Below are positions 1 through 37,620 of a stretch of 37,719 nt of DNA, piece after piece. Position numbers and translations under genes: made by a program. The notes below the pieces were generated by a model. The model was not told the DNA's origin. It worked only from the letters and a program-made list of their open reading frames with translations, and did no database searches. Each line of letters opens with the position of its first letter. Position 1 is the stretch's first letter. Where the stretch lies: NCBI GenBank assembly GCA_024276655.1, contig JAJRWU010000135.1, positions 1 through 37,719 of the forward strand. Direction: 5' to 3'. This stretch comes from Planctomycetota bacterium. Lineage in GTDB: Bacteria > Planctomycetota > Planctomycetia > Pirellulales > Pirellulaceae.

Positions 1-220
1 ATTGAATCAAAGTCCCTTGCTTTTGGCCTAAATGCGAAAAACGCAACCCAGAAATACTGCCTTTAGTCCGCTTTGTTACTCACGACTAGCGATTCACCAA
101 AACTCAACGTCACGCTGAACCAGTACATTAGGGCCAATCCAAGATCTATTCCGTGTTTTTCAGATGCCGGCAAGCCTCCGGTTTGGCGGGGATCTCATAA
201 GGCGAGCGACAGATGAAAAT

Positions 221-260
221 TTACCTAATACAAGCACGAAGCGCAAGCGAGTGAATCAGC
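221..260 (+). promoter_or_regulatory. Conserved 40-bp upstream motif TTACCTAATACAAGCACGAAGCGCAAGCGAGTGAATCAGC, copy 1, upstream of the H-NOX operon
   Basis: 36 of 41 nt are identical to the reverse complement of 37426-37467, which lies 16 bp upstream of the PepSY-TM gene ATG. In both cases the motif has the same orientation relative to the downstream gene. Confidence 0.45.
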
Positions 261-545
261 AAACGGTCATTCTCGCGTGGGTGGGAACCCAAAAAAACTC
301 ACGGACGCCCGTTGCGTGCGGGTAAGTTATTTTCCGCCGCTCGCCTGGCGGGTTCGGCTGTGCGGGCTGTAGGGGTATTGCCTTTTTTTGTGTATCGGCC
401 GGGTGTCTGCTTTTGCCGTCAAGATTTCCCGCCACGCCCGCCACTCATACGCAACCTATGTTTTCAAGCGGCATTTTGAATGCTCTTGGGCGCGAAATCG
501 AACCCAACCCACAAAAACCAACACCGAACCGCAAGGAACAGAAAC

Positions 546-10886: not shown

Positions 10887-10983
10887 CGCAAACTCCTCAG
10901 GGCATGATCCCTCTGCTCTGTTGTTTATACACAAATGCCCAGAGGCAATGCACGATGGCATTGGAAGGCCATCGTACAATTTA

Positions 10984-11014
10984 GAAGCCCGGCTTTTTGA
11001 AAAAGCCGGGCTTC
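10984..11014. terminator. Palindromic hairpin terminator, family copy 1
   Basis: GAAGCCCGGCTTTTTGAAAAAGCCGGGCTTC is a perfect palindrome, downstream of the minus-strand gene 11069..11572. Confidence 0.6.
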
Positions 11015-11068
11015 TCGCGCGGCCAATTCAGGGTTCAATCGATCCACGCTCTCCACGGCCAAGAATAA

Positions 11069-14895: not shown

Positions 14896-15228
14896 TTGAC
14901 CGAACAGCAGTGGTCGTTGATTCAGGCCTTGTTGCCCTCGCCAAAGAATCGCCAAGGAGGACGGCCCCGCACCGTTGCGATGCGGGAAGTCGTCAACGCA
15001 ATCATGTATCTCAATCGCACAGGCTGCCAGTGGGACATGCCGCCTCACGATTTGCGCCCTAAAATAAAAGTACTGTCTACGATTACTTCGCACAGTGTGG
15101 CGCGACGACGGAACCAGGACCGCCATTGTCACGGCGCTTCGCGAGCAGATTCGCGTTCAGGAAGGTCGCCTATCGACCCCCAGCGCCGCCTGCATCGACA
15201 GCCAATCCATCAAGACCACCGGCTAATG
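14896..15228 (+). pseudogene. IS5-family (DUF4096 N-terminal type) transposase remnant, frameshifted and truncated
   Basis: MTEQQWSLIQALLPSPKNRQGGRPRTVAMREVVNAIMYLNRTGCQWDMPPHDL matches the IS5/IS4-family transposase N-terminus. Two frameshifts are needed to read TVYDYF and WRDDGT...SAACIDSQSIKTTG. The DDE domain is absent. It ends abutting a copy of the TIR-type repeat. Confidence 0.7.
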
Positions 15229-15253
15229 GCTGGCAAGCCTCCGGCTTGGCGGG
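15214..15253 (+). repeat. Family-2 repeat end (GACCACCGGCTAATGGCTGGCAAGCCTCCGGCTTGGCGGG) at the transposase remnant
   Basis: Homologous to the inverted ends of the element at 33233-33435, to 20085-20151 (reverse complement) and to 166-191. The homology continues about 45 bp further, shared with rc 20030-20084. Confidence 0.6.
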
Positions 15254-15285
15254 AATTTCAACACACCATTGCACGGAATATCTCT

Positions 15286-15341
15286 TGGACAGCGCCTAAC
15301 TGGACAGCTCCTAACTGGACAGCTCCTAACTGGACAGCGCC
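15286..15341. repeat. 15-bp tandem repeat TGGACAGCKCCTAAC, about 3.7 copies
   Basis: Seen directly. Encodes the NWTAPNWTAPNWTAP run in a spurious ORF. Confidence 0.8.
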
Positions 15342-15429
15342 AGGTTCTCCGTTTTTCAGATATGTTGTGGTCCAGTTTGACGTGCTATCACAACATGCTG
15401 TGGTTTTTCTGGAAGATGGCGCTGTTCAG

Positions 15430-15699
15430 CTAAGCCGCCAGCCGCACCGGCTTTTGTTCCTCGAACAAATTCACGGTGCGCAACATGGCGCCGTCTTCGT
15501 CGTAGAATTGCAGCAGGCCGACGTCGATCATCCACATGGCCATGAAATCGCCGCAGCGGTAGGAATGAGCGCGAACCTTGCCGCTATCGACCAGGAATGT
15601 CTCGGCGACGCCGCCGGGCATTGCCACATCGGCGCCCAATTCGAGAAAGGTGCGGGCGACAATCAGTTTCACTTCGTGAGAAAAAGGGGCGACTCTCAT
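15430..15699 (-). CDS. Hypothetical small protein (89 aa)
   Basis: ORF with an ATG start. A small palindrome GCAATATCCTTATTGC overlaps the start region. No known motif. Confidence 0.35.
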   Translation of the reverse strand: MRVAPFSHEVKLIVARTFLELGADVAMPGGVAETFLVDSGKVRAHSYRCGDFMAMWMIDVGLLQFYDEDGAMLRTVNLFEEQKPVRLAA

Positions 15700-16461: not shown

Positions 16462-16562
16462 AGAAAGTGTGGAACCATTAAATCCTGAATGGACGTTCGA
16501 GAAGCCCGGCTTTTTCAAAAAGTCGGGGTTCTGAACCGGGAAGTAGTTTTTCCACACTTTCT
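16462..16562. repeat. ~100-bp element bounded by 13-bp perfect inverted repeats (AGAAAGTGTGGAA / TTCCACACTTTCT), enclosing terminator copy 2
   Basis: Inverted repeats at 16462-16474 and 16550-16562. Hairpin GAAGCCCGGCTTTTTCAAAAAGTCGGGGTTC at 16501-16531. Confidence 0.5.
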
Positions 16563-16641
16563 TACTTGGCCAATTGGCGCGTCAATAAATAAGTCAACTT
16601 GATCGAGTGCTTGGAAGCACCTGCCATGGAAACTTGCGGCC

Positions 16642-19743: not shown

Positions 19744-20084
19744 GAGAGCCGCCGCAAAGTGGCTTAGCCCACTCGCCGCCCGATAAAGCCGCGACGGCGA
19801 TCATGCCTTTCTCGTCGTTCACCGAAATCCGCGCCACGTACACGAGTGTGGGAACATTCCGTAAGACACCCTACCGCAGTGAACTGACCGATGCGAGAAT
19901 CCGCTCGCCATTCATGCATACAATCGGCTTGATACCCTTCGGCATCGCATGGCTCGCGTTCTCTCCGCTGGTGTTGTTGCTTCAAATGTTGCCGCAGCGC
20001 AACTCGAAAACGCATGTGGCTGATTAGCAAGGCAAGACGCCTGCCCAGGATCTGTTCCGTGCAACGGTGTTAGGAGATCTCCGC

Positions 20085-20200
20085 CAAGCCGGAGGCTTTG
20101 ACAGCCATGAGCCGGTGGTCGAGCACGGCGAACACCACCGGTAGGCCAACGCAACGAACGATGCATCCCGGCGGGGATGTCAGTGCCCTTGGAATAAGAA
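20085..20200 (-). repeat. Family-2 repeat, partial copy (one end plus the internal CCGGTGGT...ACCACCGG hairpin)
   Basis: The reverse complement aligns to 15214-15300. The internal part aligns to 33238-33350 (CATGAGCCGGTGGTCGAGCACGGCGAACACCACCGG ... CATCCCGGCGGGGATG). Confidence 0.55.
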
Positions 20201-21436: not shown

Positions 21437-21483
21437 AAAGCCGTGGAGTAATGGTTACCGATTATGATGCGGAAAAGCCCGGC

Positions 21484-21512
21484 ATTTTCAAAATGCCGGG
21501 CTCATGATTCGA
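21484..21512. terminator. Palindromic hairpin terminator, family copy 3, shared by the convergent PRMT-like and csrA genes
   Basis: AAAAGCCCGGCATTTTCAAAATGCCGGGCT. Confidence 0.6.
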
Positions 21513-28595: not shown

Positions 28596-28624
28596 GATCT
28601 ATTCGAGAGCATGTTTGCCGAGTT

Positions 28625-28658
28625 AAAAGCCCGGCATTTTCAAAATGCCGGGCTTTTT
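28625..28658. terminator. Palindromic hairpin terminator, family copy 4
   Basis: AAAAGCCCGGCATTTTCAAAATGCCGGGCTTTTT. Confidence 0.6.
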
Positions 28659-31245: not shown

Positions 31246-33138
31246 TCAGCGCGTGCTGGTCGTGGATACTTTGCTGGCCGACATTCGTTCGGCGCGGCCA
31301 ATCAATACCAGCGAGCGGTTTTTCATAAAGTACGGCGCCTCCGCCAGCACTTCGGAGTCGACCGGCAGGTACGGCTTCAAGGTTCGCCAATCGTTGGCCG
31401 GCGCGATAATAAATGCATCGGGATACTGCTCGAAGAACGCCGCAGCCGCCTGCGGCTCCTGGCCCGAGAACTCTTGCACCGGACGGCCTAGATAAAAGAC
31501 CCAACTCGGCTCCAAGACGCCGAACGCCGCCACGTGCGGTTGCTCGGAACGGCGGCCGACTTCCTCCAACAAGACGTGGCTCTGTTGATGCGAATCGACG
31601 CGCGCCGCCGCTATTGCGAAAACCGACGTCGTGAGGCAAACAGCCGAACCCGCGAACCAAAGCACGGCCTGTTCGCGAAGGTTGTGTTTGACCAAATACA
31701 AGCACCCCACGCCGGTCGCGAGTGGAATCAAGCCGATCAGCCCCAGCCATTCCTCGCCGGGCAAAAACTGACGCGCGGCCAGCGGAAGGCCGATCAAAAA
31801 CACCAGCCCGACCAAAACGAGCGACGCCAGCGAAAGTCGAGGCCAAAACTGGGCCACGTATTCCGTATGCTCGCGCCAGTGGTGCAGAAAGCAACCCACC
31901 AACAGCGCCAAGGCGGGAAAGCAGGGTGTTACGTAACTGGGAAGTTTGGTTTGCGCGAACGAAAAAAGGCCCACGTACACGCCAACCCAACAGGTCAGGA
32001 AAATATAGGCTGGGTCGGGCTGCGCCGATTTTCGCATTCTTGTGATCAGGTCGAGCAGCACCGGGCCGGCGAACACCGACCAGGGAAAGAAGCCGGCCAG
32101 AATTGCCACGGGATAATAAAATAGCGAGCCGGCGTGTCCTTCCATCGACGACGTCGCGCGTGCGATGTTGTGGGTCCAGAAAAATTCGGTCAGCCATTGG
32201 CCATCCGTTCGCAGCCCAACCCACACGTACCAAGGCGCCGCAATCAGGGCGACGGTCGCCAAGGCGGTCAGCGGACGCATTTTCCAACAGGTGCGGATAA
32301 AATGACGAGCATGGAACGGACGCAGCAGCGCCCAGAGCCGCGCCGCCAGCGTGGTCGGAGCTTGCGTTTGCTTCGGTAACGACACAATCAGTAAAAACAT
32401 GCCGAGCACCGCCGTGGGCAACACCAGCCCCACGGGCCCCTTGGCCAGCACGGCCAAACCCATTATGGCGTAAACCGCCACGGCTCTGGGAAAACTTCGG
32501 AGGAAGTAACGATCGGTTGGTTCGGTGGTTGGCGTGTCGCCGCCTTGTGCGGCGTTTGCCGAATTTTCTTTTTTGGGAAAGACGCCCAGCGCATAGACGG
32601 TCAGGGCCATTGAACTGAGGAAAATCAGCAGGTAATCGGGAGTGGCGGCGCGCGAGGCGACGTCGAACATGAACGTCGTCGCCAAAATCAGGCCGGCCAA
32701 CAGCCCCACGCGAGGATGGAACAGTCGTCGTCCCAGATGATAGACGGCAAGCACGCCGCCGGCGCCCAACAGAGCCGACCAAAACCGGGCCGCGAACTCA
32801 TTGACCCCGAACAGGCCGTACGACGTCATCATCAGCCAATATTGAAGAATCGGTTTGTGCGTGCGGTATTCGCCATTGAAGAGCGGCGTCACCCAATCGT
32901 GGGCGGCCAGCATTTCGACCGTGCAGCCGGCGTTGCGAGGTTCGTCGCGGTCCCACAAGCGAGGACCGCCCAGATTACTGAACAGCGAGAGCCCCGCCAC
33001 AAGCAGCAAGATCAAATGATGCCGAACCGATTGCGACACGCCACACCTCCCTGGGAAAACACAGCCGCCAATGCCTTGAGGCAAGACCGGCGAAGTGTAA
33101 GACGCCCCCGCCGAGATCACAATATCAGTCTGTTGCAC
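31246..33138 (-). CDS. GT39-family glycosyltransferase (ArnT / PMT_2-like)
   Basis: Multi-TM protein with the N-terminal loop RLWDRDEPRNAGCTVEML..DWVTPLFNGEYRTHKPILQYWL typical of ArnT/PMT-type transferases. The start is uncertain (GTG at 33138). Confidence 0.65.
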   Translation of the reverse strand: MQQTDIVISAGASYTSPVLPQGIGGCVFPGRCGVSQSVRHHLILLLVAGLSLFSNLGGPRLWDRDEPRNAGCTVEMLAAHDWVTPLFNGEYRTHKPILQYWLMMTSYGLFGVNEFAARFWSALLGAGGVLAVYHLGRRLFHPRVGLLAGLILATTFMFDVASRAATPDYLLIFLSSMALTVYALGVFPKKENSANAAQGGDTPTTEPTDRYFLRSFPRAVAVYAIMGLAVLAKGPVGLVLPTAVLGMFLLIVSLPKQTQAPTTLAARLWALLRPFHARHFIRTCWKMRPLTALATVALIAAPWYVWVGLRTDGQWLTEFFWTHNIARATSSMEGHAGSLFYYPVAILAGFFPWSVFAGPVLLDLITRMRKSAQPDPAYIFLTCWVGVYVGLFSFAQTKLPSYVTPCFPALALLVGCFLHHWREHTEYVAQFWPRLSLASLVLVGLVFLIGLPLAARQFLPGEEWLGLIGLIPLATGVGCLYLVKHNLREQAVLWFAGSAVCLTTSVFAIAAARVDSHQQSHVLLEEVGRRSEQPHVAAFGVLEPSWVFYLGRPVQEFSGQEPQAAAAFFEQYPDAFIIAPANDWRTLKPYLPVDSEVLAEAPYFMKNRSLVLIGRAERMSASKVSTTSTR

Positions 33139-33232
33139 CCCTGGTGACTTGGTGACTGGTGAAAAACGTCTGCTAGCGGCGGCGGGAGCCCAGCCCGGCG
33201 GCGTTCGCCTGAAAATCTATCCCGGGAGGGAT

Positions 33233-33435
33233 TCAAGCCATTAGCCGGTGGTCGAGCGCAGCGAACACCACCGGAGGATCGAAACGCCCGGCGTCGGCAA
33301 TGTGGCGCCGCCGATGGCCGCCGTTCCGACCGCTGCATCCTCGCATCCCGCCGGGATGCGGGAGTGATTGCGCGGCCGATACCGGCGGTGGCGCTGCGCT
33401 GACCGCCGGCTAATGGCTGTCAAACCGCCGGCTTG
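33233..33435. mobile_element. ~200-bp MITE-like element with ~33-bp terminal inverted repeats (CAAGCCGGNGGYTTGACAGCCATTAGCCGGYGG), 95 bp upstream of the GT39 gene
   Basis: Right end CCGCCGGCTAATGGCTGTCAAACCGCCGGCTTG. The left end is the inverted copy with an internal 15-bp deletion (CAAGCC|ATTAGCCGGTGG). Internal hairpin CCGGTGGT..ACCACCGG. No ORF. Confidence 0.6.
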
Positions 33436-33952
33436 TAACGAACTCTTGTCTGCAACGAACGCCTTCTTGCTTCAATCGGCGGCGCGAATCTGGCGTCCTG
33501 GTGAAAAAAATCTGGCGGGTTGTTGAATGACTTAGGGGAAGTCCCGAAATAAGATCCCTGAGCCGATGAGCGCTAGCTCACGGTTTACAGCATTCTCGGA
33601 GAACCGGACGCTAACGTGTTCCGGCTGATCTGCGCGGCGTGTTTGGCAAGAATAACCCGGATTATCACCCCGCTCAGTCCGAGACGAAAATACGGAAGGC
33701 TGCGCGTCGTTTCCAGAAATAAATTTTGATGGCTTTTTGACCGAATTCCGCTAGAATCACCCCTGCGCCACCCTTCCTTCGGGTGGGGCCATCTGGCCAA
33801 GGACAATAACGGGCTTTTTTTTACGAATAGCCTCTTGAATAGTTAGCAAACGGGTCCACATTTCTGTTGACGCCTTGCCGCGACACAATCTTCTGACGTT
33901 GAAGATTTTGGCTCGTTGCGGCCAGCGCGGTCAAACCATTAAGGAGGATGCC

Positions 33953-36352: not shown

Positions 36353-36385
36353 AAAAGCCCGGCATTTCCAAAATGCCGGGCTTTT
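36353..36385. terminator. Palindromic hairpin terminator, family copy 5
   Basis: AAAAGCCCGGCATTTCCAAAATGCCGGGCTTTT. Confidence 0.6.
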
Positions 36386-36530
36386 CCGCGCGACCCTCCC
36401 AACTCCACCCGACGCTGCTGCAATATGAGGAGATAACGGCCCCATGCAGCGCGCTGAAAAGTTGCCTCGGACCAGCGCCCCAATAAGCTAGAATTGAGTA
36501 AGCACTTCTCGTTTCTAGGAGCAACACATC

Positions 36531-36713: not shown

Positions 36714-36786
36714 GATTGCACGCCGTCAGCGGAAGTCCTGACATTGCTCGGCGGTTTTTGGGCGGACATTTCAATCATTTCAAAAC

Positions 36787-37410: not shown

Positions 37411-37425
37411 GGGAAAGCTCCTTTT

Positions 37426-37467
37426 GGTGATTCACTCGCTAACGCTTCGTGCTTGTATATAGGTAAG
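37426..37467 (-). promoter_or_regulatory. Conserved 40-bp upstream motif, copy 2, 16 bp upstream of the PepSY-TM start
   Basis: The reverse complement CTTACCTATATACAAGCACGAAGCGTTAGCGAGTGAATCACC matches 221-260. Confidence 0.45.
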
Positions 37468-37620
37468 TTGTACACGTTCACGGGTTTGGAACCGCCGGAC
37501 AGATTGCTATCGCAACTCCACGCGCCTTGGGCGGAAATCCAGACGTCGCTCGGAGGTTTCTGGGCGGACATTTCAACGGTCGAGTAGAGGAGGAGCGTCA
37601 ATGACGCCCCTCCCCCCTCA

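Follow-up and report, generated by a model that had tools for sequence, protein, structure and literature searches.

A convergent pair of three-hairpin REP-type units on a Planctomycetota contig, probably a REPIN/BIME-like relative of repeats that bracket Y1 transposase genes

The stretch of DNA analysed here (the window; 37,719 nt, which is an entire NCBI contig) carries, upstream of a gene for a GT39 (PMT_2) protein, a repetitive element that the first-pass annotation described as a complete MITE-like copy of about 200 bp with 33-bp terminal inverted repeats (TIRs). The GT39 gene is read from the reverse strand; its database call of 597 aa places the start at GTG 33039, assuming the stop and frame of the longest ORF, which has 630 aa and begins at GTG 33138. 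The element was placed 95 bp upstream of this gene, yet the distance is ~157 nt when counted from GTG 33039 and ~57 nt from the alternative GTG 33138. The statement that the element contains no ORF holds in the sense that none longer than 73 aa overlaps 33233–33435 and that the ORFs found there have no evident family. A tRNA scan of the element gave no tRNA, and Rfam gave no match in it at the gathering threshold; in the permissive search the best E-value was 3.7 and no family was obtained even at E ≤ 10.

The inverted repeat that had been noticed is present, with arms at 33236–33275 and 33379–33418 that match over 18 nt (94%) and 28 nt (93%), and the internal hairpin corresponds to a central palindrome at 33342–33360. 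Similarity to other copies spans, however, from ~33196 to ~33534, beyond the reported 33233–33435, and the supposed MITE is a convergent pair of ~100-nt units, each of three hairpins (hp1, hp2 and hp3), with the central hp3 in common. The parts of this doublet are listed below; R1 is a covariance model of the unit, made from other genomes only and applied to the window without filters, and numbers preceded by L designate loci of other genomes.

33196–33218, forward strand: sub-family B 5′ extension of the left unit (...CGGCGGCGTTCGCCTGAAAATCT), 91% identical to L071 over 33196–33287
33217–33299, forward strand: left unit, R1 match of 55.9 bits covering hp1, core and hp2, with the common 33342–33360 as its hp3
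33219–33232, forward strand: hp1 of the left unit, ATCCC-GGGA-GGGAT, read from the sequence and aligned to the hp1 positions of R1
33236–33274, forward strand: core of the left unit, AGCCA and the TTAG tag (33241–33244), then hp2 (33245–33274), from the sequence and R1
33342–33360, no strand assigned: hp3 palindrome CGCATCCC-GCC-GGGATGCG, common to both inverted units, from the sequence and R1
33338–33436, reverse strand: complete right unit, inverted, R1 match of 75.5 bits (E 5e-16) over the full model length
33342–33360, 33382–33409, 33402–33418 and 33421–33435, reverse strand: hp3, hp2, core with TTAG, and hp1 of the right unit
33437–33534, reverse strand: sub-family C 5′ extension of the right unit, 88% identical to L074 over 33401–33534 (134 nt)

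The stretches outside the units define sub-families that we name A, B and C, so that the window doublet is of B/C type. The B extension of the left unit is also 87.5% identical to L112, while left of ~33196 the likeness to copies from a sister genome fades, and the C extension of the right unit aligns also to L112 and L033. Since the sister-genome copies remain similar for 20–100 nt farther out, the 33-bp arms are not ends of the element: they exist and are inverted, but what was taken for termini are internal hairpin modules. The 15-bp deletion that had been read into the left arm is a misalignment, because the left unit owns a separate hp1 (33219–33232) and the match to CAAGCC is coincidental; the two arms carry different, covarying hp1 stems, that of the right unit being CAAACC-GCC-GGCTTG (33421–33435). 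No target-site duplication is visible at 33196/33534 or at 33233/33435. As single-stranded DNA the doublet folds with −76.9 kcal/mol (z = −7.1), and a lone unit folds no better than its shuffles (nearest-neighbour DNA parameters, z = −1.0).

From 5′ to 3′, the unit consists of hp1, the core (N)CAGCCATTAG, hp2, 20–30 variable nt, hp3 and CAGC. The first hairpin has a stem of 5–6 bp and a three-base loop, the third a stem of 6–7 bp and a loop of three or four bases, and each of these two is followed by CAG(C). In the second one, the stem CCGGTGGT/ACCACCGG contains an internal loop and ends in a GC-GNA-GC (GCGNAGC) tip; in the left window unit this hairpin reads CCGGTGGT...ACCACCGG with the tip GC-GCA-GC. 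Across 44 aligned sequences, taken from many taxa, 96% of the cells were paired and 11 of 23 pairs changed on both sides, values of pairing and covariation that none of 500 shuffles reached; when the 3′ partners were slid as a control, pairing fell to 28–51%. Covariation involves 5 of the 6 stem pairs in hp1 and 4 of 7 in hp3, where the shape is kept and the sequence varies, while in hp2, paired to 99.7% across the 44 sequences, it is the sequence that is kept, and a T-to-C variant there is offset by A-to-G. The G-N-A loops are closed by C-G and lie on the same strand throughout, and G·T pairs occur on that strand only. It is known that d(C-GNA-G) and d(GCGAAGC) form unusually stable DNA mini-hairpins. 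From the strand-specific GNA loops and the one-strand G·T pairs we infer that single-stranded DNA is the likely working form of the unit.

The same features may be read in another way, namely that the unit serves chiefly as a structured RNA or as an element acting in cis on transcripts, such as an mRNA 3′-end stabiliser or an attenuator, and that its link to a transposase (see below) is secondary. The strong covariation of stems and the wobble pairs confined to one strand would fit such a role, as would the position of a single unit at 20084, just 3′ of glnE and ahead of a terminator-like hairpin; in Escherichia coli REPs do affect mRNA stability. Against it stand the lack of any Rfam match, the fact that units take both orientations, forming convergent pairs and lying on opposite strands around a transposase gene, and the loops themselves, since C-G-closed GNA triloops and GCGNAGC are classic for DNA mini-hairpins and atypical of RNA. 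Moreover, no promoter-like or terminator-like sites were found in 33000–33900. We therefore consider the RNA reading improbable, and the promoter reshaping supposed in the first-pass annotation is a conjecture, as is any effect on the neighbouring GT39 gene.

Further copies had been reported from the window as end fragments, and a part of these are indeed related to the doublet. The 15-mer GCCATTAGCCGGYGG occurs four times in the window against 0.26 expected; a search with the arm sequence returned related pieces only at 15214–15249 and 20097–20141, and apart from the matches given here all R1 matches in the window had E ≥ 0.16. The copies outside the doublet, and the gene relic that adjoins one of them, are the following.

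20040–20083, forward strand: sub-family A 5′ extension (CCGTGCAAYGGTGTTAKGARATCYCCGCC) of a single unit, 42 nt, 88–90% identity, E 3e-10
20084–20185, forward strand: complete single unit, R1 match of 72.6 bits (E 2.5e-15; full unit), with hp1 at 20085–20100, core at 20103–20119 (TGAG variant of the tag), hp2 at 20112–20141 and hp3 at ~20163–20180
15214–15292, reverse strand: truncated unit with A extension, hp1 at 15234–15248 and the 17-nt core at 15215–15231
15144–15249, reverse strand: R1 match of 28.3 bits to that truncated unit, real in its hp1 and core only
169–200, reverse strand: fragment with part of the A extension and hp1, no core, 32 nt, 93.8% identity, E 4e-9
14896–15226, forward strand: N-terminal relic of an IS5-family transposase (DUF4096; PF13340, E 7e-18)

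The window thus holds three full units, one truncated unit and one fragment in 37.7 kb, all of them intergenic. What was called an inverted end fragment at 20085–20200 is the complete single unit at 20084–20185 and has the orientation of the left arm, whereas the piece at 169–200 comprises extension and hp1 only and is not matched by the R1 unit model. The copy at 15214 does abut the end of the IS5-type (DUF4096) frame ...IDSQSIKTTG*, as had been observed; the unit is cut there inside hp2, and the IS5 relic, which is frameshifted and truncated at the repeat, shares with it no sequence longer than ~9 nt. The relic belongs to the context and lies outside the repeat family, its contact with the unit being a truncation junction. 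This same region (14896–15430), made up of the IS5 relic, the truncated unit and about three 15-nt tandem repeats (CTGGACAGCTCCTAA, ~15293–15340), is a synteny breakpoint with the sister genome discussed next, in which homology begins only at 15430 and other genes lie upstream.

Orthologous loci were compared with one genome, SZUA-33 (GCA_003233175.1), ~96% identical in the flanking genes; GT39 homologues elsewhere are ≤55% identical, too distant for comparing orthologous loci more widely. SZUA-33 is without the 33196–33534 element: upstream of GT39, window positions 33132–33697, element included, give way to 141 nt of unrelated sequence, in which a different palindromic repeat lies (alignment read by eye, the global MAFFT alignment being misleading here). 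Downstream of glnE, SZUA-33 lacks 261 nt (19896–20156), which comprise 144 nt of non-repeat DNA and then the A extension, hp1, core, hp2 and spacer, and it keeps at the 20084 site only the hp3 end, GAACGATGC-hp3-CAG. A 9-nt direct repeat, GA(A/C)CGATGC, stands at both edges of this indel and encloses more than the unit alone. The indel looks like a microhomology deletion in SZUA-33; on that reading the 20084 unit seems older than the split of the two genomes. Copies are therefore variable between close relatives, but the junctions are not clean: of the two sites compared, one is a replacement and one an indel, and neither offers a clean empty site. The suggestion of a recently active family fares less well, since the window copies differ from one another by ~8–15% and the 20084 copy seems to predate the divergence from a sister that is still ~96% identical. 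In the SZUA-33 loci selected by pattern there are about 20 units, among them five clear convergent doublets of the window topology and one with a weak arm, and L112 presents a collapsed, "double-foot" version of the B/C pair. Three of these loci (L071, L074 and L112) also have an inverted outer motif, CCTGTTGTTTATACATAAG, outside the unit extensions and often directly after hp3-CAGC; the window copy is without it.

Several other repeats share this contig. The sites 36746–36774 and 37548–37576 had been listed as degenerate members of the family, yet both the unit model and the extension query miss them; their kinship was considered and rejected, as only a block of 13/15 nt resembles the A extension, for which we estimate ~0.07 chance matches in the window. 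They form a direct repeat pair of their own (27 of 29 nt identical) flanking a PepSY_TM gene, and the copy at 37548–37576 abuts the 3′ end of a group II intron (domains V/VI; RF00029, 52.7 bits) at the contig edge, 37579–37657 on the reverse strand, so it may be a homing site. SZUA-33 has nothing of what lies beyond ~37469 at the intron locus, and FBPase there directly adjoins the PepSY gene; in addition, that genome has ~73 nt of unrelated sequence in place of 36718–36786. Another family of repeats (...AAGGCGAGCGNCAGATGAAAATTTACCTAATACAAGCACGAAGCG...GAGTGAATCAGC) is found at window positions 198–287 and 37420–37469 (inverted), at L095 4130–4220 and at L201 3866–3925; it is 94.5% identical to a sister-genome copy and adjoins unit fragments in both genomes. 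A palindromic family (in SZUA-33 with, e.g., the sequence GAATCCCGGCATTTT-C-AAAATGCCGGGATTC) occupies 10979–11032, 16463–16570, 21460–21510, 28616–28657 and 36353–36388 and recurs in SZUA-33 (L199 1122–1159), where one copy lies within the stretch that replaces the window element upstream of GT39. Finally, at the equivalent of window ~20290, SZUA-33 carries an extra element of ~124 nt that is absent from the window (L200 6830–6952); with its ~35-nt perfect inverted arms (CGTGCTTCGTGCTCTTCGCGTCCTTCGTGGTGAAC...) and possibly a GGGAG duplicated at the edges, it looks like a true MITE of the TIR type.

The three-hairpin unit is widespread beyond this contig. The 17-mer AGCCATKAGCCGGYGGT was scanned against 185,579 species genomes (596 Gb) and found at no fewer than 118 loci, where by our own arithmetic a few hundred matches would be expected by chance, but at least 79 of the matches are distinct true units, all with a much longer common architecture. 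Among the matches listed, the units come from MAGs labelled as Planctomycetota, Verrucomicrobiota, Kiritimatiellia, Victivallales, Syntrophobacteraceae, Hydrogenedentota, Sumerlaeota, Acidobacteria and Methylococcaceae, while matches of the type …CATGAGCC… within genes of unrelated taxa look like chance hits. The first-pass annotation had itself asked whether the similarities might be restricted to the window as products of local duplication, and chance matches within the contig belong to the same kind of explanation. What could be cited for it is that the window has only four copies and that, of the six sites listed earlier, two fall outside the family. The family was, however, recovered at >90 loci in other organisms and at 77 of the 80 loci collected through a transposase gene (see below), and a model made without window sequences scores the window copies with E from 1e-11 to 1e-16, which leaves this explanation a negligible probability. 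Two syntenic Verrucomicrobiales MAG loci with the same doublet (L017 ~606–990 and L050 7234–7442) differ in that L017 has roughly 200 bp inserted inside hp2 directly after AGCCATTAGCCGGTGGTT, an indication that units may serve as targets for insertion.

When ORFs near units were clustered, one recurrent small protein emerged, Y1_Tnp (PF01797), and no other recurrent neighbour, the histidine-kinase and response-regulator clusters being generic. Genes for it adjoin units in L031, L036 and L061: in L036 the gene stands between a forward and an inverted unit, with hp3-CAGC toward the gene on both sides, and the other two show parts of this layout. The proteins have 148 aa and the motifs DHVH, WQ and YIANQEEHH; they pass the NF033573 model of IS200/IS605 transposases (59–68 bits, cutoff 55) and stay below the NF047646 model of REP-associated tyrosine transposases (~20 bits, cutoff 80). 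For an independent test, metagenome contigs were scanned by Y1 protein alignment alone, which gave 80 loci of 48–88% identity, and R1 was then run on these, with counts restricted to loci that have enough flank. A forward unit precedes the gene at 54 of 70 loci (median gap ~10 nt to the start codon), an inverted unit follows it at 63 of 76 (median gap ~9 nt after the stop), and both are present at 45 of 66. The hp1 loops of the units at the Y1 loci are GGA (67) and GAA (31), those of hp3 are more mixed (GGA 36, GGCA 23, GAA 11), and the tetranucleotide 5′ of hp2 in the units flanking the gene is TTAG in 48 cases, GTAG in 20, CTAG in 4 and ATAG in 3. The two units around one gene are often of different sub-types and differ in sequence. 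A Y1 gene with inverted units on its flanks was met in other organisms, including L106, which is labelled Planctomycetota and is bracketed likewise, and not on this contig; none was found here or in ~118 kb of sister-genome DNA (for L199–L201, among called genes and Pfam hits), so the cognate enzyme in this organism is putative.

These observations bear directly on the model of the first-pass annotation, which takes the element for a classical MITE, bounded by 33-bp TIRs and moved by a DDE transposase such as that of the adjacent IS5 family. Its general part holds, as the element is a dispersed, non-coding inverted repeat of a mobile family, and small inverted elements of this kind, one copy of which touches an IS5 relic, are what the model foresees. 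But the proposed TIR arises from a misalignment, copy likeness runs 20–100 nt past the termini, no target-site duplication was seen at 33233/33435, single units are common, and the junction cuts the IS5 relic, which has no more than ~9 nt in common with the unit. To look for an autonomous partner and to compare orthologous loci, as had been proposed, were well-chosen tests; what units bracket at related loci, however, is a Y1 gene (45 of 66 loci), and no DDE parent was found. Because the gene found between units is Y1_Tnp, this is not a MITE family of the DDE type, and we regard the classical model as very unlikely. Integron attC sites, CRISPR, omega-RNA (the TnpB/IscB guide RNA) and a group II intron fragment were also considered as identities of the element and dropped in view of the (G/T)TAG-tagged hairpin and of the units that bracket Y1 genes.

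The reading that we favour, and in which we have considerable confidence, is that the window element is a REPIN/BIME-like doublet, i.e., two inverted REP-type units of ~100 nt, the full form of which brackets a Y1 HUH gene. As far as can be judged from sequence, the window doublet looks like the gene-bracketing arrangement minus the gene, with the same convergent topology. The resemblance to the E. coli "REPtron" (REP/BIME with TnpA-REP, a RAYT) includes the imperfect hairpin tagged with a GTAG-type tetranucleotide, the Y1 HUH gene flanked by inverted units, and, as in BIMEs with their Y and Z REPs, inverted pairing with alternating sub-types and mosaic accessory motifs. E. coli REPs, on the other hand, have one hairpin in 20–40 nt where the present unit has three in ~100 nt; TnpA-REP belongs to class 2 (Y---NP) and the partner here to class 1, subclass 1.2 (Y---Q--HH); and classic REPs are species-specific, whereas this core sequence is conserved across phyla. 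With the REPIN-RAYT system of Pseudomonas (Bertels and Rainey) the element has in common that the doublet is inverted and non-autonomous, folds as a single long hairpin and has the topology of the repeats flanking the transposase gene, although the REPIN concept implies vertical inheritance and single-copy RAYTs of groups 2/3, and the cross-phylum spread seen here argues for horizontal transfer. IS200/IS608 (IS200/IS605 family) likewise has a Y1 HUH transposase (PF01797/NF033573) and hairpin ends with a 5′ guide-like tetranucleotide, and ssDNA chemistry is expected for both. Its left and right hairpins, however, are dissimilar and lie on one strand, with no inverted ends, while here the ends are inverted copies of one unit and therefore their active strands are opposite. 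Since the protein lacks the RAYT-clade feature (class 2, Y---NP; NF047646) and the units are not the non-inverted, one-strand ends of IS200, the family is placed beside the RAYT and IS200 families and inside neither.

A different weight may be given to the same evidence, and forward unit, Y1 gene and inverted unit may together be taken as an autonomous IS, a horizontally moving relative of IS200 with inverted ~100-nt ends, of which the window doublet would be an internal-deletion derivative, hence a MITE in the broad sense; it would then stand outside any domesticated, single-copy RAYT/REPIN partnership. In favour are the assignment of the protein to the IS200 type by NCBIfam, the tight bracketing with its stereotyped layout, the near-identical unit cores in distant phyla, which suggest horizontal spread, and the resemblance of both the double-foot copy in L112 and the window doublet to deletion derivatives. 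A simple model of an IS plus deletion predicts, however, neither the many single units nor the mixed A/B/C mosaics, the two units around one gene often differ in sub-type and sequence, and the functional strands of the two ends are opposite, unlike in IS200/IS608. The published subclass, too, has a low copy number and 36% identity between copies within a genome (PMC6006769). We find this alternative clearly the less probable one.

The Y1 proteins fit the signature published for TnpA-Y1 subclass 1.2, DH[IV]H, WQ and YIxNQxEHH, and its length of 148 aa (Quentin, Siguier, Chandler and Fichant, 2018; PMC6006769). That survey described the subclass mainly from Cyanobacteria and Bacteroidetes and reported no associated REPs or IS200-type ends, whereas the genes described here come from the PVC group and other phyla and are tightly bracketed by inverted REP-like units. 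REP/Y1 systems are already known, some of them in the PVC group: GTAG-type REPs and repeat-flanked tyrosine-transposase genes, as well as dimers and clusters, were described from O. terrae, R. baltica and Planctomyces (Di Nocera et al., 2013; PMC3733652). The REP-encoded peptides of the R. baltica and O. terrae families in that work do not correspond to the present unit, and the TIRYT proteins of its TIRtrons are longer and have HTH tails, unlike the Y1 proteins here. A literature search with the core string returned nothing relevant, and searches on the Y1 subclass or on REPs of the PVC group returned nothing beyond these two papers; the three-hairpin unit, its conservation across phyla and its tie to subclass 1.2 thus look new in the searchable literature. 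The chances seem to us evenly balanced that the unit is the missing DNA partner of this "orphan" subclass, that together they make a horizontally spreading REPtron across phyla (PVC group, Syntrophobacteraceae, Acidobacteria and others), and that the near-invariant AGCCATTAG-CCGGTGGT hairpin is the recognition site.

Y1 HUH (IS200-like) enzymes act on hairpins in single-stranded DNA. By analogy with IS608 TnpA and E. coli TnpA-REP, the Y1 transposase would bind hp2 with its 5′ tag on ssDNA, e.g., at replication forks, and would cut and rejoin near hp2; units and doublets without a gene might then be mobilised or amplified in trans, and mosaics could arise through recombination and deletion between units. 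The present reading corrects a likely mis-annotation, relevant also for gene prediction as the units spawn spurious small ORFs, and it assigns a common repeat of the PVC group to the world of REPs and Y1 transposases. Because units mark sites at which the window differs from SZUA-33 (upstream of GT39, downstream of glnE and at the synteny breakpoint), they are useful as markers of genome plasticity. If the association is true genome-wide, subclass 1.2 Y1 transposases would gain a defined substrate of ~40 nt (TTAG and hp2), and REP-type repeats would turn out to be conserved and exchanged across phyla and not only within species.
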